Source: Squalus acanthias (taxonomy: Eukaryota). From it: a stretch of 64,000 nucleotides of DNA. The number at the start of each line of letters is the position of its first letter. Position 1 is the stretch's first letter. The notes beneath the pieces are model-generated. The model was not told the DNA's origin and made no database searches. It was given only the letters and a program-made list of their open reading frames with translations. Position numbers and translations under genes: made by a program. The stretch is from assembly GCA_030390025.1 (NCBI GenBank), contig CM059432.1, forward strand, positions 46,936,001 to 47,000,000, in the 5' to 3' direction. Positions 5,000 through 54,800 of this stretch are shown here, piece after piece.

Positions 5000-6243
5000 A
5001 GGGTCTCTCTTGGTCTGGAGGAGGAGGAATGGAAGGAGGAGATGAGGTCGGGCAGAGCAGCACCAGCTGCTAGAGGAGAGAGGGACAGGAGGACTCTCAG
5101 CAGGAGGCCCTACTCCTACATTCACATGTCCCAAGACCAGTGTATGAGGAGGCTGCATTTACCAAGGAGGTTTTTACAGAGCTCTGTAGCCTCGTGGAAG
5201 GAACATAAGAACATAAGAAATAGAAGCAGGAGTAGGCCATTCGGCCATTCAATGAGATCATGGCTGATCTTCTGCCTCAACTCCATTCACCGGCCCTATC
5301 GATAAGACTCAGACGTCGCAACACAGCCAGGACTGCATTGCCTGTGGCAGTCAAGGTCATAGTGTTACTTAAGTTTTATGCTACTGGAACATTCCAGGAT
5401 GCCACAGGTGATATCAGTCACATATCCCAATCTTCTGTGCACTTCTGCATAAGGGAGGTCGCTGAGGCTCTATACGCTCTGAGTAATGACTATATATCAT
5501 TCCCTATATATCATTCAGTATTGCCAGACAAGACCAGAGTCAGAGAGCTCTCGGATTCAACAGGATTGCATGATTCCCCATGGTCCAGGAAGCCATTGAC
5601 TGTACACATGTGGCCATGCGAACCCCTCATTTAAACTCGGAGGTGTTCAGGAACAGGAAGGGATTCCATTCCCTCAATGTGCAACTCATGTGCGACCACC
5701 GGCAGCACATCATGCAGGTGAATGCTTGCTATCCAGGGAGCTGCAAAGATACTTTTATAATGAGACCGTCATCCATCCGACAGATCTTTGAGCCCCAACG
5801 CAATGTGCATGGCTGGCTACTAGGTGACAAGGGATACCCTCTGATGCCATGGTTCATGAATTCCCTGAGAAAGCCCCAGACACCAGCTGAGCACTCATAC
5901 AATGAGAGCCACTCAGCCACCAGAAATATCATTGAGCAGACCTTTGGTGTCCTCAAGCAGAAGGGTTAAGATGCCTTGACTGGTCAGGAGGTGCCCTGCA
6001 GTACTCGGCCAAGAAGGTCTCCAGATTCGTGCTGACTTGCTGTATCCTCCACAATCTGGCGATCATGAGAGACCAGTCATTACCACCAGCAATTGTGCCA
6101 GAGGGTTAAGCTCAGGAGCCACAAGAGCAGGAGGAGGAGGTTGAAGAGGAGAAGGAAGACCAGGAGGAGCACAAGAGGGTTCCAGGTACATGGGCTGCAC
6201 CTGCGAGGGACAATCGCCGCCATCCAATTGAAGGCCGCTTTTG
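5000..6243 (+). pseudogene. PIF/Harbinger DDE transposase (HARBI1-like) pseudogene
   Basis: Frameshifted motifs [58 protein letters not shown]. Confidence 0.92.
5201..5305 (-). mobile_element. Short CR1 3' tail inserted in the transposase
   Basis: (TTCTTATG)n tail and GGCCTACTCCTGCT motif on minus. Confidence 0.75.
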
Positions 6244-8908: not shown

Positions 8909-9741
8909 TCATTGTATGCCTGCTGTGCATGGGTTCCTGACCAGAGTCATGATCCATGTCATGAGTAGATAACCCTTGTTGCCCTGAAGCCACCGTTTGA
9001 TTTGCCATGTTAGTTCAAATACAGCTGGCACACGGGACTGCTGCAGAATGAATGAATCATTAGCACTGCCAGGATAACGGGGACTCACCTGCATGATGCA
9101 CTGCCTCTGGTCACATACCAGCTGCACATTGAGGGAGTGGAATCTCTTTTGGTTCAGGAGAATGGCAGAGTTGACATGAGGCACACGCAAAGCAGTATGC
9201 GTGCAGTCAATGGCACCCTGCACCATAGGGAAGCCTCCAATCTGAGCAAACCCTCGTCCTCGCTCTGCTTGCTTGTCTCTGGCAAGAGTGAATGAGATGA
9301 AGCTGTCTCTTTTCTTATAGAGAGCCTCAGTGACCGCCCCCCCCCCCACCACCTTGCAGCAGTGTACAGCAAACTGCGAAATGTTGCTTATACCTCTAGC
9401 AGCAGCTTGGAAGGAGCCGGATGCATAAACATCCTTAGCCAGAGCCGCACGCAATGCGGTCCTGGCCCTGCTCTGAGGTTAGAGTTGTGGCTGCAGCAGT
9501 TGGCAGATTTCAGCCATGACCTCTTTAGTGAAGCACAGACGTCTCAAGCATTGGTTGTCGTGAATTTCAGGAGAGAGAATTGCTCCCAAAACATCCTCTG
9601 TGGATATGGCCTACTGCTAAGAGTCCTCCTCCTCCTCCCTCTTCTAGCAGCTTGTACTGCTCTGTGTGGCCTCTCTTCCTTCTCCCAGTCATACCCGATT
9701 CTAAGGGGAAGGCCCATTAGGCCACCCATGTCTGCAAGCAA
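8909..9741 (-). pseudogene. PIF/Harbinger transposase pseudogene of the second element (about 7811-10135)
   Basis: RRPYP-like N-terminus, [31 protein letters not shown]; frameshifted and C-terminally deleted. Confidence 0.9.
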
Positions 9742-11454: not shown

Positions 11455-13001
11455 AGGCTCGATTTTGCTAGGCCTGAGGAGGCGGGATTGGAGGTGTGTG
11501 GGGTGTTAAAATCGCAAAAAATGACGGGCGGCTCCAATCCCACCTCCAGCCCGCCTCCGAGCAATTTTCCCAGAATCGGGGTTTCAGACCCCGTTTCCAT
11601 CCTGCCTCCAAGAGGCGAGATAGGCACTTAAGGCCCTTAACAACCAGTTAAGTGCCTCAATAATCCCATTTTGAGAGGCCTTTCTGAATTTAACACTTTT
11701 CCCCCGTGCTGCACGTCTCCTCTGGAACACGCCAGTTAATCCTAGTGGCCTTACAAGCTGCAGCTCCACCATTAAAAAGGAGTTTTCAGCAATTATCATT
11801 TGCAGGTGGCAGAACTTTGTTGTCTCAGGTCTGGGGGAACTTTTAGCAGGCCTACTCATTGTTGTGGAAGTTTGGAGCCTGAGACCCATCTCCAGTGTGA
11901 CTTCCTGGGAAACCCCTCTCCCCACCTTGACTGAGCGCTTCCTCAACTGAGGTATATACCAGAAGAATGGGAACCATTTATTTCCTTTCCTCCTGGACAT
12001 CAGATTCGGACGAAGACCAGCCGCGGCAGCAGCAGAACCCTGAACAACAGCAGCACCAACAGCAGGAGCAACAACAGGAGCGCCAAGCTGCTGCTCACCC
12101 ACCTGAAGCTGCACAGGCAAGAAGGCGCCAGCGCATGGAAGCTCGTCGCCACAGGAGATACCCCCAAAACAGGGTTTACAGACAGAGGATGAGCTACCTC
12201 AACATGACTGAGCAGCAGTGCCAAAGGAGGCTCAGACTTTCGCGAGAGGTAGTGGGTGACATCTGCGCAATGCTGCAGCAAAACCTGGAGCCCAGAGGAG
12301 CAGGTGGACACCCCTTACCAGTGGCCGTCAAAGTCACCACCGCACTCAACTTTTTTGCTTCAGGCTCATTCCAGGGATCAGCAGTAGACATCAGCAGCAT
12401 CTCCCAGGTGGCCGCACACACTTGTATCACGCAGGTAACCGATGCCCTCTTTGCCATTGCGCACTACATCAACTTTTCCAAGGATCAAGCAAGTGTAAGT
12501 GCGCGTGCAGTTGGATTCGCTAATCTGGCAGGCTTTCCAAGGGTGCAGGGCGTCGTTGACTGCACACATGTGGCCCTTAAGGCACCCCATCACAATCCAG
12601 GTATTTTTGTCAACTGCAAGGGCTTCCACTCCCTCAACGTACAGCTGGTGTGTGACCACAAGAAGGAAATTTTACATGTTTGCGCCAACTACCCTGGTAG
12701 TTGCCATGACTCCTTCATCCTGCGGCAGTCTAGTGTGCCTCCGCTCTTCAGTCTGCCAGACCAACTTTGCGGATGGCTACTTGGAGACAAGGGCTATCCC
12801 CTGAAGACATGGCTAATGACGCCGCTGAGGAGCCCATCCAACGAAGCTGAGGAGCGCTACAACTCCAGCCACATTTCCACCAGATCCATAATCGAACAAA
12901 CCATCGGCTTGCTGAAGATGCGCTTCAGATGCCTTGTTAGATCAGGTGGAGCCCTGCAGTACTCAGCAGCCAGGGTCTCCAGAATCGACAAAATCCAGCC
13001 C
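11455..13001 (+). mobile_element. PIF/Harbinger deletion derivative, transposase only
   Basis: TIRs AGGCTCGATTTT / AAAATCCAGCCC; TAA TSD at 11452-11454 and 13002-13004. Confidence 0.9.
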
Positions 13002-13004
13002 TAA
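11967..13004 (+). CDS. Harbinger DDE transposase (HARBI1-like), uninterrupted 345 aa, C-terminally truncated
   Basis: [48 protein letters not shown]; lacks the CC.LHN segment seen in the 5000-6243 copy. Confidence 0.9.
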
Positions 13005-24296: not shown

Positions 24297-25425
24297 AAAC
24301 AACAACAGAAAACGCTGGAAAAACTCAGCAGGCCAGGCAGCATCCATGGAGAGAGAAACAGAGTTAACGTTTCAGGTCGAAGACCTTTCGTCAGAACTGG
24401 AAAAAAGCAGGAAATTAAATAGATTTAAAGCAAGTATAATGCTGGGAAAAGGGGGAGGGGATAAAAGAACAAAAGGCAAGGGCAGTGGTGGGATAGAAAG
24501 CAGGAGAGATTAAGAGACATTAAGAGATAATCAAGGCAAGAGGAGGTGGTAATGTGACAGGTAGAGGCTAGATGAAGTGTGAACTGTGCTGGCAGAATGA
24601 AGGACAGCTGCCAGCTTCTGGGAGGGGAAAAAAAGGTCAAACAAAAGGGTTGATGAAAAAATAAAATAAAAATATATATATATGTGATAGGGGCCAAGGT
24701 TATGATCTGAAATTGTTGAACTCGATGTTGAGTCCAGAGGGCTGTAAGGTGCCTAAACGAAAGATGAGGTGCTGTTCCTCGAGCTTACGCTGAGCTTCCG
24801 TGGAACAATGCAAGAGGCTGAGGACGGTGAGGTAAGAGTGGGAGTGGAGCGGAGAATTAAAGTGACAGGCCACCGGGAGCTCGGGGTCCCCCTTACGGAC
24901 TGAACGGAGGTGTTCCGCAAAGCGGTCACCCAAACTGTGTTTGGTCTCCCCAATGTAGAGGAGACCACATCGTGAGCAGCGAATACAGTATTCTAAATTG
25001 CAGGAAGTACAAGTAAATCGCTGTTTCACCTGGAAGGAGTGTTTGGGGCCCTGGACAGTGGGGAGAGGGGAGGTATAAGGGCATGTGTTGCATCTCCTGC
25101 GCTTGCACGGGAAGGTGCCGGGCGAAGGGGAAGGGGTGCTGGGGGTGGTAGAGGAGTGGACTAGGGTGTCGCGGAGGGAGCGGTCCCTGCGGAATGCTGA
25201 AAGGGGAGGTGAGGGGAAGATGTGTTTGGTGGTGGGATCACGCTGGAGGTGGCGGAAATGGCGGAGGATGATCCGTTGAACGTGGAGGCTGGTGGGGTGA
25301 AAGGTGAGGACAAGGGGAACTCTATCGTAGTTCCGGGAGGGAGGGGCAGGGGTGAGGGCAGAAGTGCGGGAGATAGAACGGACACGGTCGAGGGCCATGT
25401 TAACCACAGTAGAGGGGAATCCTCT
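24297..25425 (-). mobile_element. Penelope-like element 3' part (GIY-YIG endonuclease plus terminal repeat)
   Basis: CKRRRCNTC, YCIRCSRCGLLYIGET, RFAEH, VACHF, GLN in ORF 24700-25420. Confidence 0.93.
24362..24398 (-). ncRNA. Minimal type I hammerhead ribozyme motif
   Basis: AGTT-CTGACGA-A-AGGTC-TTC-GACCT-GAAA-CGTT-AACT: conserved core, stem II, palindromic stem III, stem I AGTT/AACT. Confidence 0.75.
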
Positions 25426-26849
25426 AGGATGTTGATCCCCAGGATGTTGATGTTGGTGGTGGGGAGGGGGGAAGGTAATGCCATTGAATGTCAAGGGGAG
25501 TTGGTTAAACTCTCCCTTGTTGGATATGGTCACTACCTGGCAATTGAGTGGCACAAATGTTACTTGCCATTTATCAGCCCAAGACTGGATGTTGTCCAGG
25601 TCTTGCTGCATGCGGGCACAGACTGCTTCATTATCTGAGGAGTCGCGAATGGAACTGAACACCCTGCAATCACCAGCAAACAATCCCACTTCTGGCCTTA
25701 TGATGGAGGGAAGGTCATTGATGAAGCAGCTGAAGATAGTTGGGCCTGGGACACTGGCTTGAGGAACTCCTGCAGCGAAATCCTGGGGCTGAGATGATTA
25801 GCCTCCAACAACCACAACCATCTTTCTTTGTGCTAGGTATGACTCCAGCCAGTGGAAAGTTTTCCCCCTGATCCCCATTGATTTCAGTTTTACTAGGGCT
25901 CCTTTGTGCCACACTCCGTCAAATGCTGCTGTGATTGTCAAGGGCAGTCAATCTCACCTCACCTCTGGAACTAAGCTCTTTTGTCCATGTTTGGACCAAG
26001 GCTGTAATAAAGTCTGGAGCAGAGTGGTCCTGGTGGAACCCAAACTGAGCATTGGTAAGCAAGTTATTGGTGAGCAAGTGCTGCTTGATCGCATTGTTAA
26101 CAACTCCTTCCATCAGTTCCAGATGATTCAGATCAGGCTAATAAGGCAGTAATTGGCCGGGTTGGATTTATCATGCTTTTGGTGAACAGGACATAATTGG
26201 GCAATTTTGCACTTTGACTGGTAGATGCCAGTGTTATAGCTGTACTGAAACAGTTTGGCTACAGGTGTGACCTCTAGTTCTGGAGCATAGATCTTCAGCA
26301 CTATACCCAGGATGTTGTCTGAGTCCTCAGCCATTTCTTGATATTATGTGGAGTGAATCAAATTGGCTGAAGACTGGCTTCTGTGATGGTGGAGACCTCA
26401 GGAGGAGGTCTACTGATACTGTAGTAATTTGATCCCATTATCTATTAATCTATAAGCAAGCCTACTGTTTTATGATAGCTGAATAATTTGATTTTTTTCA
26501 TTACATCGGAATCAGGAGTTTTTATGGAGTCTTAGGAATCGCTTTCCATGATTATGGCCCACGAAATTCCCCAGGACACGATGATGGCGGTTATGCCAGG
26601 ACCATGCCCACAAGTGCCCTCAAATGCTGGCCTTGCCCAAGTTTGTGAGGTCAGCATGAGGGCACCTTACTTGATCAGCCAGCTGACATCCATTTCACCA
26701 TGCGCACATCTCGGGCACCTGTCTGGCCAATGCAGCCAGAAAATTAGACAACTGCTCACCACTGGGGCAGGGGGACCCTAGTCCTTCCACCTTCAAACCC
26801 CATCCAGTTTTACTTTGGTCAAACCCATTTTTTTTTTTTGATTACCTCG

Positions 26850-40557: not shown

Positions 40558-41401
40558 GGGCTGGATTTTGTCAATGGGGACGTGATGGAGGCGGGACTCC
40601 CACTTTTTGGGTTGTAGTCCCGCCTCCATCGACTTGTGGCCAACCCATTGTATTTTCCCTTGATTGACCTTGTTAAGCCCGCCCAGCAGGCTTAGCAGGC
40701 CAATCAAGGGTCCCTTGGATACAGGTGACGTCAGCCATTGAAATTTCATCTGTCAAGAGCTTTTGACAGATGAAATTTCAGCGTTTGACAGCTCTGTGAA
40801 GCTGTCAAACACTGACAATATGATTTCTAACTTGAGTCTCTGGACTTAGACTCAGTTAGAAATCAATCCAGCACAGAAAGCAGAGACTGCAGCTTTTGAC
40901 AGCTCCGCAGCCATTCTGCTTTCTGTGCCGTGGATGTGAGGGATTCCCGACACCTTAAGGAAGCTAGCCTGCAGGACAAAGTTAAGGTAAGTACAAGTTC
41001 TTAAAACACTTTACACACACCAAACACACTTACCTCTGCACTCATGCACCCATCACTCACCTGCACACCGGACATCTCGGCCCCTCCAAGCCCTCCAGAC
41101 TGACGGTCCACCTCGCTAAATCGCCGTGGTTCGGGCCTGTCGGGAAGCCCACACTTCAGGGCTAAAAATAGGGATTAGGCAAAAAACTGCCTGTTAACTA
41201 CATGTTAACAGGCAGTTTATTGGCATTAATCCCCTTCCCGCCTCGGGGAGGTGGGTCCCAGCACAGGTCGGGTACCCGCCTCCTGGAAAACTTGCATGGA
41301 GGCATGTTGGGGGCGGGAGGGGTTTGGGACCCCCGAATCTGCTATTTTCACACCACTCCCGCCTCCAAACCCGCCTCCACGGGGCGGTGAAAATTGAGCC
41401 C
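40558..41401. mobile_element. Harbinger MITE
   Basis: TIRs GGGCTGGATTTT / AAAATTGAGCCC; ATG TSD; removal restores CR1 ESMCV. Confidence 0.9.
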
Positions 41402-41562
41402 ATGGACTCCAAACCTGACTTAGACCTCTTTGTATTTTCTATGATCCCATCTAATTCTTTATTATTTCTAACTCTAACTATCTCTCCCACTCCTCTGTGC
41501 ACCTTGTTTCTACTTTTACTACTATATCTTGGTGCCCAAGCCCCTGCTGAATTAATTTAAAC

Positions 41563-41895
41563 TGTTTCCCCTGGCTGGGGAGTCTAGAACACGGGGTCAC
41601 AGTCACAGAATAAGGGGTAGGCCATTTAGGATTGAGATGAGGAGAAATCTCTTCACTCAAAGGGTTGTGAATCTTTGGAATTGCCTACCCTAGAGAGCTG
41701 TGGATGCTCAGTCGTTGAGTATATTCAAGACAGAGTTCAATAAATTTTTGGGAACGAAGAGAATTAAGGGATATGGGGATAGTGTGGGAAGGTGGAGTTG
41801 AAGTAGAAGATCAGTCATGATCTTGTTGAATGGCGGAGCAGGCTCGAAGGGCCAAATGGCCTACTTCAGCTCCTATTTCTTATGTTCTTATGTTC
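41563..41895 (+). mobile_element. CR1 3' fragment inserted at the ORF1/ORF2 junction of another CR1
   Basis: TTAAAC TSD at 41557-41562 and 41896-41901; TTCTTATG tail. Confidence 0.9.
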
Positions 41896-42952
41896 TTAAA
41901 CCCACCCCCACAGCACTAGTTAACCTGCCCACAAGGATATTGGTCCCAGCTCTGTTCAGGTGCAACCCAGAAATCTTAAACAGGTCCCTTCTGCCACAGA
42001 ACTGGTCCCAATGTCCCAGGAATCTGAAACCCTCCCTCCTGTGCCATGCCACTAGCCACACATTAACCTGCCATATTTCTACTCTCACTAGCACATGGCA
42101 CTGGGAGTAATCCAGAGATTACCACCTTTGAGTTGTTCAGAAGCTATGTTCCTGTTTCTACCACAGTCCTTCCCCAACATGAACAACAATAACTTGCACC
42201 ATTACATAATCCAGATAAAAGAACATCTCAGAGCATGGTACAAGAGTAAGAGGGTGCTGACTAGCAGATGATGGGAAAGATTAAAGGCACTATGAGGTTT
42301 TTAAGAGGCTTTTCCAGGAGAGTGATGGGTAGGTAAAGTGGTTTTAGAAGAGAATGGGAAAGAACAGGGCATTTTGACTGAAAGATCGCTTAGTGGAGTG
42401 GTAGGGGAAAGTAGGGAACAACAACATTCCAGAGTTGGAGGTATCCAACATGCAGACTGGGAGATAAAGCTGGAGAATATCTCCACTTGGGAGAAGGCCC
42501 GTACTGGCTATTAATTAAGTTATTAAATTATTGGCCTGAGAAGTCAGCCTGTACCTAGAAAAAATAGTAAACAAAGACTTCCAAAGCCTCTGGAGGTAGC
42601 CTATCAGGTTTGTCTTTAGCAGAGTTCTGTTTTCAGAGGCCCTAGAAGCGTACCTGGGCAAACTAATTTATGTTACAAGTCCTATCTCCAAACTGCTTTA
42701 ATTTATTATGTTTATATTACTGCACTACTTCCGATGCATAGTTGATCCAAATCCACATTTATGACTTTCATTTTCTGGCTGCAGTCTTTACCTGATGTCA
42801 GGGGAGCTGGGTCTGTCAAGGCCTGCAATTAACAAACCAAATTTCTGACCTGTAAGGCAGACTGAGGGCTCAAGATCAGAAAAAAACTGGCAGCCAACTG
42901 GTATCCAGCACTGCCAACACCATCTAGTTATATTTGCCTCCAGTGACACTTT

Positions 42953-43690
42953 GGGCTGGATTTTGTCATTGGGAAGCTTTTGGAGGCGGGACTCCCACTT
43001 GTCGGGTTTTAGTCCCGCCTCCATCGACTTGTGGCCAACCCGGTTGCAGGTGACATCAGCGAGTGACGCTTCATCTGTCAAGAGCTTTTGTCAGATGAAT
43101 TGTCAGAGTTTGAGAGCTCTGTGAATCTGTCAAACACTGGCAATCTGTCCTCTAAGTTCAGTCCTGTCACTCAGGCTGAGTTAGAGAGCTCTCCTGAGCA
43201 GAAAGCAGAAGGCTGCAGCTTTTGACAGTTCAGCGGCCATTCTGCTTTCTGTGCCGATGAGCTGAGGGACTCCGAGACCTGAAGGGAGGAAGCCTGCAGG
43301 AAGAAGTAAAGGTAAGTAAAACTTATTAAAACATTTTAAACACACCTCACACACTTACCTCTGCACACATGCACCCATCACTCACCTGCACACCGGACAT
43401 CTCGGCCCCTCTGACCCCCGCAGACCCACGGCTCGCCTCACTGACCCTGACGAGGTTTGAAGCCGTCGGGAAGCCCACACTTCAGGGCTGAAAATAGGGA
43501 TTAGCCAAAAAACTGCCTGTTAACTACCTGTTAACAGGCAGTTAATTGGTACTAATCTCGGGTACCCGCCTCCTGGGAAGGTGGCACAGAGGCGGGTTGG
43601 GGGGTGGGATGGGTATCCGCCCCAGATTCTGCCATTTTCCTGGCAGTCCTGCCTCCAAACCCGCCTCCCCAGGCTGGCAAAATTCCCCCC
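42953..43690. mobile_element. Harbinger MITE (same family as 40558)
   Basis: TIRs GGGCTGGATTTT / AAAATTCCCCCC; TTT TSD. Confidence 0.9.
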
Positions 43691-44336
43691 TTTGCCTCTA
43701 AGCCCCACTGGAGCTTGTGAGTCAGTGCTGCAGCATAACTGAGATGGAAGCATGTGCCACAGTCATCTTAGGAAAGTATTAACTGCCAGCCACAAAAGGG
43801 AAAATGTTGCCAGAGGTAAAGTTAAATATTTGCCACCAGTAGCATTTTTCATCGGGTCTTCTTTTATTCTGACCATGTGCAGACTGGGTTCTTAGTCCAT
43901 TCATACAAGTCAAGCTGTTAACTTTGCTGGACTTTTTTCCAACACTGGGGAAGGTCTAGGCCAGTGTGATGAAGTCACAAATACAGCTTTACAGTAACTG
44001 CACGTGCATTAGATCACAAATGTGCCTGTGCTTATGTGACTTTTTTGCAACTGCATACATTTAAAAAAAAAATATTCATTCAAAGGATGTGGGCATCACT
44101 GTCAAGACCAACATTTATTGCCCATCCAAAGTTGCCCTATTTTACCAAAAACACTCTGTATCATAATTCCTCAAAAACATTCCTTTGGTAACCCTCAGGG
44201 CAATATTGATGCACTGTAGTCCTCTAAAGCAGTTAATTATGGCTCCACAGTGCTGATGCGCTAAATGTTTGGAAAATTTACAGTTCTAATATTCATATTT
44301 GAAAGTATATAATTATATGTTTTAACTTATATGATC

Positions 44337-47300
44337 GCTTTAAACTAACTAGTGGGGGGGAGGTTCCTAGAGAGCAAATAATAAAAATGACAACAGAGAA
44401 GGTCATAGACTTAGGTAGCAGTGGGGAAATTAAAAACCAGAGTGTGTCAGGAAGGGGCAGAAGGTACGGAGTAAAAGGTAAAGGAATAAAAAGGGCAAAA
44501 GCAGGAACTAAGTGTCACAAAACATATTTGAAAGTTCTCTATCTGAATGCACGTAGCATTCGTAACAAAATAGATGAGTTAATGGCACAAATAACTACAT
44601 ATGGGTATGATCTTGTGGCCATTACAGAAACATGGCTGCAGGGTGACAATGCCTGGGAATTAAACATACCAGGTTATTTAACGATCAGGAAGGAAGGGGA
44701 GGTGGGGTGGCTATGTTAATAAAGGAAGGAATCACTGTAATACAGAGAAATGATATTGGGTCAAAAGATCAGGATAATGAAACAGTTTGGGTGGAGATAA
44801 GGAATAATAAGGGGAAAAAAACACTAGTGGGCGCAGTCTATAGGCCTCCGAACAGTTGCAACTCTGTTGGACGGAGTATCAATCAGGAAATAGTTGAGGC
44901 TTGTAATAAGGGAACATCTATAATTATGGGGGATTTTAACTATCATATTAATTGGACAAATCAAATTGGGCAGGGCTGCCTTGAGGATGAGTTCATTGAG
45001 TGTATTAGGGATGGGTTTCTTGAGCAGTATGTAACTGAACTGACCAGGGGGCAAGCAACCTTAGATCTGGTCCTGTGTAATGAGACAGGATTAATTAAAA
45101 ATGTCCTAGTAAAGGATCCCCTTGGAATGAGTGACCATAACATGGTTGAATTCCATATTCAATTAGAGGGTGAGAAGGTTGGATCTCAAACAAGTGTGCT
45201 AAGCTTGAATAAAGGAGACTATGAAGGTAGGCAAGCGGAATTGAGTAGAGTGGATTGGGAAAATAGATTAAAGGGTAAGACGATACATGATCAGTGGTGT
45301 ACATTTAAGGAGTTATTTTACAACTTCCAAAAAATATATATTCCACTGAGAAAAAAAGGGTGTAAAAGAAAAGACAGTCATCCGTGGCTAAGTAAAGAAA
45401 TTAAGGATAGTATTCGACTAAAAACAAGGTCCTTTTAGGTAGCCAAATCTAGTGGGAGGATAGAGGATTGGGAAAACTTTAAAAGACAGCAAAAAATAAC
45501 AAAAAGATTGATTAAGAAAGGGAAGATAGATTATGAAAGTAAATTAGCAAAAAATATAAAAACAGATAGTAAGAGTTTTTATAGTTATATAAAAAGAAAA
45601 AGGGTGGCTAAAGTAAATGTTGGTCCCTTAGAGGATGAGACCGGGAAATTAATGGTGGGAAATATGGAGATGGCAAATACACTGAATGAATATTTTGTAT
45701 CAGTCTTTACAGTAGAGGACACTAAGAATATCCCAACACTGGACAAACAGGGGGCTATAGGGGGGGAGGAGCTAAACACGATCAAAATCACTAAGGAAGT
45801 GGTACTCGGTAAAATAATGGGACTCAAGGCGGATAAATCACCTGGACCTGATGGCTTACATCCTAGGATCTTGAGGGAAGTGGCGGTAGGGATTGTGGAT
45901 GCATTGGTAATAATTTTCCAAAGCTCCCTGGACTCAGCAAAGATCCCGGCAGACTGGAAAACTGCTAATGTAACACCCTTATTTAAAAAGGGCAGTAGAC
46001 AGAAGGCTGGAAACTATAGACCGGTTAGCCTAACATCTGTGGTAGGTAAAATTTTGGAGTCCATTATTAAGGAGACAGTAACGGGACATTTGGATAATCA
46101 TAATTTAATAGGACAAAGTCAGCATGGTTTTATGAAGGGGAAGTCATGTTTGACAAATTTGCTGGAGTTCTTTTGAGGAAGTAACATACAGGGTGGATAA
46201 AGGGGAACCAGTGGATGTGGTGTATTTAGACTTCCAAAAGGCATTTGACAAGGTGCCACACAAAAGATTATTGCTTAAGATAAAAAATCACGGGATTGGG
46301 GGTAATATTCTGGCATGGATAGAGGATTGGCTATCTAACAGAAGGCAGAGAGTTGGGATAAATGGTTCATTCTCAGACTGGCAATCAGTAACTAGTGGTG
46401 TTCCGCAGGGGTCAGTGCTGGGTCCCCAACTCTTTACAATCTATATTAACGATTTGGAGGAGGGGACCGAGTGTAACATATCAAAGTTTGCAGATGATAC
46501 TAAGATGGGAGGGAAAGTAGTGAGTGAGGAGGACATAAAAAATCTGCAAGGGGACTTAGACAGGCTAAGTAAGTGGGCAGAGATTTGGCAGATGAAATAC
46601 AATACTGGAAAGTGTGAGGTTATGCACTTTGGCCGGAAAAATAGTAGAGCAAGTTATTATCTTAATGGCAAGAAAGTGGAAAGTACTGAAGTACAAAGGG
46701 ATCTGGGGGTCTTGGTGCACGAAACTCAAAAGGTTAGTATGCAGGTGCAGCAAGTGATTAAGAAGGCCAATGGGATGTTGGCTTTCATTGCTAGGGGGAT
46801 AGAATATAAAAATAGGGAGGTATTGCTTCAGTTGTACAAGGTATTGGTGAGACCGCACCTGGAATACTGCATACAGTTTTGGTATCCATACTTAAGAAAA
46901 GACATACTTGATCTTGAGTCAGTACAAAGAAGGTTCACTCGGTTAATCCCGGGGATGAGGGGATGGACATATGAGGAGAGGTTGGGTAGATTGGGACTCT
47001 ACTCATTGGAGTTCAGAAGAATGAGAGGCAATCTTATTGAAACATATAAGATTGTGAAGGGGTTGGATCGGGTGGATGCGGGGAGGATGTTCCCAATGAT
47101 GGGTGAAACTAGAACTAGGGGGCATAGTCGGGTGAAACTAGAACTAGGGGGCATAGTCTTAGAATAAGGGGCTGCTCTTTCAAAACTGAGATGAGAAGGA
47201 ACTAATTCACTCAGAGGGTGGTAGGTCCATGGAATATGCTGCCCCAAAAAGCTGTAGAAGCTACATCATTACATAAATTTAAAACAGAAATAGACAGTTT

Positions 47301-51807: not shown

Positions 51808-54800
51808 TAAACTAGTATGGCAGGGGGCTAGAAACCTATGTAGTGAAATAGAGGAAAGTGAAAGGCAGACAGAAATAAATGGTAAAAGGGTGAGGAACAA
51901 AAAACAAAGGGCCAAACCAATTCATAAAAAATGTGAGCATAAAAAATGCCTGAGGGTTTTATACCTTAATGCGAGAAGCATCAGGAACAAGGTAGATGAA
52001 TTAGCTGTGGAAATAGAGGTTAATAATTATGATCTAATTGGGATTACGGAAACATGGTTGCAGGGTGAGCAGGGCTGGGAGCTTAACATACAGGGGTATT
52101 CAGTATTTAGGAAGGATCGACAAAAAAGAAAGGGAGGAGGGGTAGCATTGCTGGTAAAAGAAGGGATAAATGCAATTGAAAGGAAGGATATTAACTCAGT
52201 TAATACAGAATCTATATGGGTGGAGCTAAGAAATAGCGAGGGGCGAAAAACATTAATAGGAGTGGTATATAGGCCTCCAAATAGTAAAATAGAGGTTGGG
52301 GAGGGCATCACGAGGGAAATTAGAGAAGCGTGCAATAAGAGCACAGCTGTCATCATAGGTGACTTTAACTTACATATAGATTGGGCTAGCCTAATCAGTA
52401 AAAATAATGAGGAGGAGGAATTCCTTGAGTGTTTAAGGGATGGTTATCTGGATCAATATGTCGAGGAACCAACTCGGGAACAGGCTATATTGGACTGGGT
52501 ACTGTGCAATGAGAAGGGACTAATTAGTAATCTTGTTGTGCGGGGACCCTTGGGGCAGAGCGATCATAACATGATCGATTTCTCACTCGAAATGGAGAGC
52601 GAAGAAATTGACTCAGATACTAAGGTCCTGAATTTAAACAAGGGGAATTATGATGCCATTAGACGGGAACTGAGTAGGTATGATTGGACAACGTTCCTGG
52701 GAGGACTGGAGGTAGATAAACAATGGCAAGCATTTAAAGATAGAATGACAAAATTGCAAAAATTGTTTATATCAATCTGTCATAAAAGGAAATCTAAAAA
52801 GGTGACTCAACCGTGGATAACAGGGGAAATTAGAGACAGCATAAAATCCAAAGATAGGGCGTATAAAATAGCCAAAAAAAGCGCCAGAGCGGAAGCTTGG
52901 GAACAGTTTAAGATAGAGCAAAGGAGGACAAAGGGCTTAATCAAGAGGGGCAAAATAGCTTACGAAAGCAAGCTGGCGGAAAATATAAAAACTAACTCCA
53001 AAAGCTTTTATAAGTATATCAAGAGGAAAAGACTGGTGAAAACCAAAGTTGGCCCATTGCAGTCAGATACGGGGGAATATATAACGGGAAATAAAGAAAT
53101 GGCAGACCAACTAAATGCATACTTTGGGTCAGTCTTTACGAAGGAAGACACAAAAAACCTCCCTGGGATATCGGGAAAAATAGGGACATTTGCAAAGGAG
53201 GAACTGACGCAAGTCAATATCTCTAAGGATATGGTGTTAAGGAAGCTAAAGGGATTGAAGGCGGACAAATCCCCAGGGCCTGATAACATGCATCCTAGGG
53301 TACTGAAGGAGGTGGCCCTAGAGATAGCGGATGCACTAAGTATGATTTTTCAGAATTCATTAGACTCGGGAACAGTGCCCATGGATTGGAGGGTAGCTAA
53401 CGTTACCCCACTATTCAAAAAGGGGGGTAGGGAAAAAGCAGGTAATTACAGACCTGTAAGCCTTACATCAGTTGTGGGCAAAATGCTGGAGTCCATCATT
53501 AAGGATGAAATAGCGGAGCACTTAGCAAATGGGGACAGGATAGGACAGAGTCAACATGGATTTACAAAGGGTAAATCGTGCTTGACTAATCTATTGGAAT
53601 TTTTTGAGGGAGTAACTGGTAAAATAGATGGGGGAGAGCCAGTAGATGTGGTGTACCTGGACTTCCAAAAGGCCTTCGATAAGGTCCCACATAAAAGATT
53701 AGCAGGGAAAATTGAAGCTCATGGGATAAAGGGGAAAGTATTGACGTGGATAGAGAACTGGCTGTCAGATAGAAAACAGAGAGTTGGAATAAACGGCTCA
53801 TTTTCTGAATGGCAGGCAGTAACAAGTGGGGTACCACAGGGATCTGTCCTGGGTCCCCAGCTGTTCACAATTTACATTAATGACCTGGATCAGGGAGTCG
53901 GATGCAGCATTTCCAAATTTGCAGACGACACTAAACTAGGAGGGGGGGTGGGCTCAGAGGAGGAGACCAGGAAGCTCCAGAGCGATTTGGACAGACTGGG
54001 TGATTGGGCGGATAAATGGCAGATGCACTATAATGTGGACAAGTGCGAAGTTATCCACCTTGGGTGCAGGAACGGGAGGGCAAATTATTATTTAAATGGC
54101 AATAAATTGGGAGAGGGGGAAGTACAGAGAGACCTGGGTGTTCTTGTACACCAGTCACTGAAGGCGAGCATGCAGGTGCAACAGGCGGTCAAGAAGGCAA
54201 ACGGTATGCTGGCCTTCATAGCAAAAGGGTTGGAATACAGGAACAGGGATACCTTGCTGCAGCTGTACAGGGCACTGGTGAGACCACACCTCGAGTACTG
54301 TGTACAGTTTTGGTCGCCTCATCTGAGGAAAGATGTTCTTGCCATGGAGGGGGTGCAGCGGCGATTCACCAGGCTGATACCAGGAATGGCGGGATTGACC
54401 TATGAGGAGAGACTATGTAGTTTAGGGATGTACACACTGGAGTTTAGAAGATTGAAAGGGGACCTCATAGAAGTGTATAAAATTCTGACAGGTCTAGACA
54501 GACTAGATGCAGAAGGAATGTTTCCCTTGGCGGGTGAGAACAGAACTAGAGGACATAATTTAAGGATAAGGGCTAAACCATTTAGGACAGAAATGAGGGG
54601 GAATTTCTTCACTCAGAGGGTGGTGAACCTGTGGAACTCATTGCCACAGAGGGCTGTGTACGCCAGCTCATTAAATATATTTAAGAGGGAATTAGATATA
54701 TTTCTACAGGCAAAAGGGGTTAAGGGTTACGGAGAGAAGGCGGGGACGGGATACTGAATTGGAGGATCAGCCATGATCTCATTAAATGGCGGAGCAGGCT

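Follow-up and report, generated by a model that had tools for sequence, protein, structure and literature searches.

A conserved U_UUA_AAC heptamer at the ORF1-ORF2 junction of esterase-type CR1 LINEs points to -1 ribosomal frameshifting

Programmed -1 frameshifting at U_UUA_AAC probably yields an ORF1-ORF2 fusion in esterase-type CR1 LINEs, as judged from comparison of the junction over many lineages. The window (the whole 64,000-nucleotide stretch that was analysed) holds copies of three CR1-type families in which an esterase ORF1 ends in T_TTA_AAC followed by a stop codon, with ORF2, encoding an endonuclease and a reverse transcriptase (RT), in the -1 frame (Table 1). An earlier note on this DNA had suggested from these copies that a gag-pol-like fusion is made. 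Comparison supports that suggestion, and three of the four tests that were named as able to refute it were run without any of them doing so. Frameshifting in CR1 would be a variant of a known mechanism, strongly supported by comparison.

In the proposed mechanism most ribosomes would stop at the ORF1 stop codon and release ORF1p, while a minority would slip back by one base, tRNA-Leu and tRNA-Asn moving from UUA AAC to UUU AAA. The slipped ribosomes would resume at CUA, reading Leu-Asn-Leu onward, and would produce an ORF1p-ORF2p fusion, which in family B would amount to 315 + 981 residues, or approximately 1,296 aa. The predicted outcome is a high level of ORF1p and a low level of RT, with the ratio set as in gag/gag-pol. 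With less weight, we suggest that slippage may be aided by a pause from the adjacent stop and by a protein on an unstructured G motif instead of by a pseudoknot.

The junction in the window and in its families

The family A copy on the forward strand was borne out as it had been described. GCT TTA AAC TAA is read at 44337, the -1 frame (TTT AAA CTA ACT, from 44339) is open as far as the endonuclease motif at 44540, and the ATG at 44387 is the first in-frame ATG of ORF2. This copy is 5'-truncated at 44337 and its ORF2 is broken downstream, the open frame ending at 44719. For the family B copy at 51808 the claimed frame of 982 codons from 51809, free of ATG until 52571, was found, and that first ATG does lie past the Pfam endonuclease match (residues 54–253). 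The heptamer of this copy is however incomplete (C-TAAAC), truncation having occurred inside it; the full CAT TTA AAC TAG is seen in other family B members. The copy sits inserted in an older CR1 and has a short tandem repeat end, namely a tandem 8-mer tail after 54830.

On the reverse strand, the junction T TTA AAT TAA of the family C copy and its -1 frame FKLIQQG stood as claimed, while the excision of 41563–41895 alone, through which they had been reconstructed, leaves an extra duplicate. AAT is peculiar to this aged copy and AAC is present in most family C members. The G-run said to follow the stop was found in all three window copies. In two family C copies, the window copy (41563–41895, reverse strand) and locus L020, the 3' end of another element is inserted at or just after TTTAAA, as if this site were also an endonuclease target.

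Table 1. Junction features of the three CR1-type copies in the window
Feature	Position	Strand	Basis or remark
Family C copy, esterase ORF1, decayed 3' part	41896..42175	-	
Family C copy, later insertion at the junction	41563..41895	-	6-bp target duplication GTTTAA (41896-41901, 41557-41562)
Family C copy, heptamer T_TTA_AAT and stop TAA	41552..41561	-	
Family C copy, G-run	41541-41544	-	
Family C copy, endonuclease motif	40553	-	past a second insertion
Family A copy, putative slippery heptamer T_TTA_AAC	44339..44345	+	sequence; family ORF1 ends ERALN-stop
Family A copy, ORF1 stop codon TAA, immediately 3' of heptamer	44346..44348	+	sequence
Family A copy, G-run spanning +11 to +15 past heptamer; candidate stimulator	44354..44360	+	sequence
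Family A ORF2, -1 frame: linker, endonuclease from 44540, RT	44339..47167	+	optional ATG 44387
Family B copy, heptamer remnant TAAAC and stop TAG	51808..51815	+	truncated within site
Family B copy, GGGGG at +11 to +15	51823..51827	+	sequence
Family B ORF2, open, 982 codons: 50-codon linker, APE endonuclease, RT	51809..54757	+	first in-frame ATG 52571

Thirty loci per family were collected by genome searches. The site was present in 30/30 family A loci, for which the query itself contained it, and TTTAAAC TAG was present in 29/30 family B loci, for which the query started at AAAC and the window copy is the exception. The ORF1 proteins end in ERALN, REHLN and VGLN in families A, B and C, respectively. 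ORF1 encodes a zinc-finger-like and GDSL esterase protein of 315–320 aa, and Pfam domains PF13472 (SGNH/GDSL esterase, ORF1), PF03372/PF14529 (APE) and PF00078 (RT) were identified. The layout is that of the CR1 clade, with an esterase ORF1, an ORF2 with APE and RT, and a short tandem repeat 3' end. We take the elements to be CR1 from this domain layout. Sharks, reptiles and birds have CR1 as their main LINE. The nearest named homologs of the LINE proteins of the window were from sharks and rays. In PMC4120745, an ORF1 of the esterase kind is classed as type IV.

The 5' ends of family B copies (L031–L060) lay within 65 nt upstream of the shift site in 6 of 29 cases, the window copy included, and in none between 66 and 336 nt upstream. 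Two copies share an identical breakpoint 33 nt upstream, and in family A 2/29 ends fell within 30 nt of the site. Pausing of RT, nested insertions or chance could account for such clustering.

Conservation of the heptamer across lineages

A blind tally was made with a profile that was built from the ORF1 alignment and ends 11 residues short of the C-terminus. The input comprised 55 foreign loci from metagenomes and the loci of the source genome, among them 800 kb of stretches taken without targeting and the loci that two distant protein queries had brought in. Out of 167 ORF1 ends 7 were cut off, and TTTAAAC with a stop was found in 146 of the 160 that were scored. The count was 135/145 in the source genome, or 82/92 when families A and B were left out, as their queries overlapped the site, and 11/15 on the foreign metagenome contigs. 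The 14 misses comprised nine aged copies with a single changed base, the interrupted window copy, three decayed foreign copies and one outgroup of L2 type. The site is common to nine or more families of the source genome. Genome-wide (3.7 Gb), TTTAAACTAR-N7-GGGGG matched 29,779 times against 20 for a reversed control, the matches being repeat copies and not independent events. The motif of heptamer and G-run exceeds chance.

Conservation at silent positions was evaluated on 17 real copies, one per lineage (16 distinct, two being of the same family), which were picked for open frames; L174, L176, L177, L200 and L202 were set aside as decayed or outgroup. Median identity of the ORF1 protein among these copies was 31%. 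TTA and AAC were used in 17/17, and the preceding codon, which specifies Ala, Gly, His, Tyr, Ser or Cys, ended in T in 17/17, so that all three silent positions of the heptamer, for which the earlier note had asked that synonymous conservation be tested, are invariant, in lineages that are mutually related and hence do not give independent counts. None of 19 other conserved columns was codon-invariant (best 13 of 14). TTA occurred in 4/59 other conserved Leu columns and makes up 15% of Leu codons in the lineage ORF1s. The stop after the heptamer varied, being TAG in nine copies, TAA in seven and TGA in one. As silent positions are fixed while other conserved columns vary, the constraint on the heptamer acts on RNA. 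The heptamer, of the form X_XXY_YYZ, stands in the frame of the upstream ORF, as in the retrovirus and coronavirus type.

The site could be kept for a reason unrelated to frameshifting, either a need of ORF1p for a C-terminal Leu-Asn or an RNA or DNA element serving, e.g., RNP assembly or an internal promoter. This we consider quite unlikely. A protein requirement does not fit the fixed silent positions, a C-terminal tail that varies by 14 residues in length, or the teleost esterases of L2 type, none of which ends in Leu-Asn (0/33). Nor would the frame of ORF2 be fixed over eight linker lengths by an unrelated element, and family B would be left without a means of making its endonuclease. Consistent with such a role, on the other side, are a downstream G motif that is conserved as nucleotides and free of any fold, and a terminal Asn that is retained even in lineages ending in GN or KN, to which we return below.

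Protein ends were compared as well. ORF1 ended in LN in 35/38 proteins of the shark, ray and alligator type (named sources being sawshark, rays, skates, houndshark and alligator) and in 75/85 of a lineage with named homologs from the annelid Ridgeia. Foreign copies of the amniote type, presumably bird-like, carry the site in DNA. A search at the level of 50% clusters, with a profile that included the LN columns, returned 136 new proteins, of which 53 had no usable end and 83 were scored. Of the latter, 41 ended in LN, with tails of 25–39 residues. The residue before Leu was never K, Q, E, M or W (0/41), for which no T-ending codon exists, as compared to 10/41 and 12/41 one and two places further upstream.

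Among the 42 ends without LN, 12 were QGN, SGN, SKN or AKN, against a background of 5.6% and 1/33 in the L2 control. Judged from the protein ends, QGN/SGN and SKN/AKN would fit G_GGA_AAC and A_AAA_AAC, respectively. Gln preceded Gly in 8/9 of the GN ends and never preceded Leu, a covariation that a slippery site would predict. U_UUA_AAC, G_GGA_AAC and A_AAA_AAC belong to the four heptamers that PMC5009743 names as most prone to shifting. A G_GGA_AAC family was not found in the source genome (16 matches against 130 for the control), and a search for DNA of the QGN/SKN lineages returned none. ORF1 relatives were not found in a viral collection, where 62 motif matches, none adjoining an ORF1, were put down to chance. 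The six matches obtained from prokaryote genomes were all weak and were excluded from the evidence.

Frame and start of ORF2

The endonuclease lay in the -1 frame in 12/12 non-decayed lineage copies, over eight linker lengths and with stops in the other frames, and ORF2 did so in 29/29 family A and 24/24 family B copies. The check on whether ORF2 often lies in the 0 or +1 frame thereby returned -1 in every case. The open linker between site and endonuclease spans 37–69 codons in these lineage copies (35–65 codons by the general figure). Upstream, the ORF2 frame is closed within 1–5 codons in many lineages. In families A and B it is closed five codons before TTT, and ORF1 and ORF2 therefore overlap only in the region of the heptamer.

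A start codon upstream of the endonuclease that is conserved across lineages, the third feature sought, was not found, nor was any AUG or near-cognate codon common to all lineages. Family B, H (the L329 family), L171 and L172 have no Met before the endonuclease. Elsewhere the first Met is scattered, at codon 3–4, 7, 16, 22, 43 or 53. These observations bear on termination-reinitiation, in which a codon close by, whether AUG or not, would let translation begin again in the -1 frame in the manner of SART1 or L1, the RNA motif acting as a retention signal. The early AUGs of families A and E, 16 and 7 codons in, could serve such a restart. An in-frame AUG was moreover present at, or 2 nt past, the ORF1 stop in 5/10 foreign copies (one with a UAAUG overlap), as compared to 0/8 copies of the source genome. 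These foreign copies come singly from related lineages and are partly decayed. Initiation of L1 ORF2 is reportedly independent of AUG. There is precedent in SART1, for which UAAUG is described in PMC3708506 and PMC3894237. An AUG overlapping or adjoining the ORF1 stop, as in SART1, is however not conserved here, and reinitiation predicts neither an invariant X_XXY_YYZ nor an apparent swap to other slippery heptamers. With four lineages free of AUG before the endonuclease, we regard reinitiation as unlikely. In L177 (approx. position 2000), the L2-type outgroup, a stop-start overlap, ATGA, takes the place of the heptamer at the end of the esterase ORF1; the frame 3' of the ATGA is decayed, and the overlap is not tied to an open ORF2.

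Splicing, editing or polymerase slippage might instead join the frames in the RNA. The TAG stop of half of the lineages is a possible splice acceptor, and splicing of LINE transcripts occurs in other clades. Raw RNA reads from a related organism, in two runs, were examined over the family B junction at depths of approximately 77 and 103. At a threshold of 1% the site showed neither splice joints nor indels nor altered bases, and no splice joints were found across 2.9 kb. The AG is furthermore missing in the TAA and TGA lineages, and the G-run lies 3' of the stop, where polymerase slippage cannot bypass it. Joining at the RNA level is thus highly improbable, and programmed frameshifting at the heptamer remains the preferred reading. 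As the reads fall on both strands, they come mostly from inert, passively transcribed copies; they argue against joining of transcripts and do not bear on translation.

The downstream G motif and known frameshifting systems

GGG was present at exactly +11 to +13 after the heptamer in 18/18 lineage copies and in 134/146 copies overall, with G at +14/+15 in 16/18 and at +18/+19 in 14–15/18. The shared motif, GGGGG-NN-GG, begins at +11. In ORF2, +11 falls on the wobble base of codons for Gln, Lys, Arg, Leu, Gly or Ser, and since it holds G under six different residues the constraint is on the nucleotide.

A stimulatory fold 3' of the site was not detected. The mean folding z-score was approximately -0.3, the anchored consensus fold was empty and a stem scan stayed at the level of shuffled sequence. 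A pseudoknot or stem-loop 5–9 nt downstream was likewise not found with folding tools, which model pseudoknots and G-quadruplexes incompletely, and an Rfam search returned nothing credible. Three candidates were discarded. One family C copy folded well (z -4.4), but its fold is not a shared one, the G motif of families A and B showed no long-range pairing above the null, and an intramolecular G-quadruplex is not general, as there are 1–4 G-tracts per 60 nt and only one in families A and B. The label "coronavirus-type" that the earlier note had given to the site accordingly holds for the heptamer but not for an accompanying pseudoknot or hairpin, and the stimulator, if any, would be of another kind. 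If frameshifting occurs, a bound protein is the best guess, given slightly less than even confidence, and a further pause may come from the neighbouring stop. Whatever the reading, some binding function of the G motif is likely because it is conserved as nucleotides and without a fold.

The closest parallel to such a stimulator is found in arteriviruses. The PRRSV motif CCCANCUCC sits 11 nt to the 3' side of the shift site; nsp1-beta and PCBP bind it, and its action depends on bound proteins (PMC5009743). Both motifs are unstructured and begin at a like distance, here from +11. The PRRSV motif is however C-rich and that of CR1 G-rich, and CR1 has a classical -1 heptamer with a candidate stimulator.

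Retroviruses and coronaviruses make standard use of -1 frameshifting. In Rous sarcoma virus the stop follows immediately after the shift heptamer. U_UUA_AAC itself is the shift site of IBV ORF1a/1b and is listed among the most shift-prone heptamers in PMC5009743. As in retroviral gag-pol, a structural protein lies upstream and RT downstream in the -1 frame. In contrast to both virus groups, CR1 showed no pseudoknot or hairpin 5–9 nt downstream; unlike retroviruses, it is a non-LTR element without a protease, and its frameshift is predicted from comparison of sequences. Among non-LTR elements of the APE type, ORF2 of Dictyostelium TRE5-A and TRE3-A requires a -1 frameshift according to a figure legend in the review PMC5911963, these elements being of another clade and having another ORF1. 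CR1 shares with SART1 and human L1 a bicistronic LINE RNA from which only little ORF2p is to be made (PMC3894237). In those elements, by contrast, translation restarts and a separate ORF2p is made, whereas the CR1 copies lack a common start codon.

Translation of LINE ORF2 is treated as an open question in PMC3894237, which lists reinitiation, IRES and 2A. No proposal of frameshifting in CR1 was found in the literature searched, a scope that does not extend to the founding CR1 papers and Repbase reports. The word "frameshift" had no match in PMC3905857, PMC4120745 or PMC3708506, and the supplements of PMC4120745 held no sequence with the motif. The conserved site offers a precise and cheap test of how LINE ORF2 is translated. 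If the proposal is true, CR1 RT bears an esterase and RNA-binding N-terminus, the first Met is the wrong start for ORF2 models of these elements, and frameshift stimulators may gain a new class. Tentatively, a LINE branch reaching over sharks, amniotes and invertebrate lineages might make its RT as a gag-pol-like fusion, with swaps between the three strongest slippery heptamers and, as stimulator, a G motif free of structure and bound by a protein of the host or by that of ORF1, which would be the first protein-stimulated frameshift in a transposon; we consider this broader picture possible but somewhat doubtful.

Four database gene models (P0034, P0058, P0186 and P0188) show the ORF1 esterase continuing through FKL into the ORF2 linker, an arrangement like that predicted for the fusion; they are probably copies with an indel and are not taken as evidence of expression. 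A shark-type ORF1 that is 58% identical to that of family B (P0008) is labelled Pseudomonas aeruginosa, likely by host contamination of an assembly. Elsewhere in the window, a non-autonomous element whose long inverted ends are rich in G+C occurs twice, in inverted orientation, at approx. 40560–41390 (reverse strand) and 42960–43700 (forward strand). ORFs at 11931–13004, 5574–5969 and 8909–9478 encode Harbinger-like nucleases, and at 25000–25797 (reverse strand) an ORF end that presumably resembles the GIY-YIG endonuclease of a Penelope-like element is fused to a LINE RT fragment.
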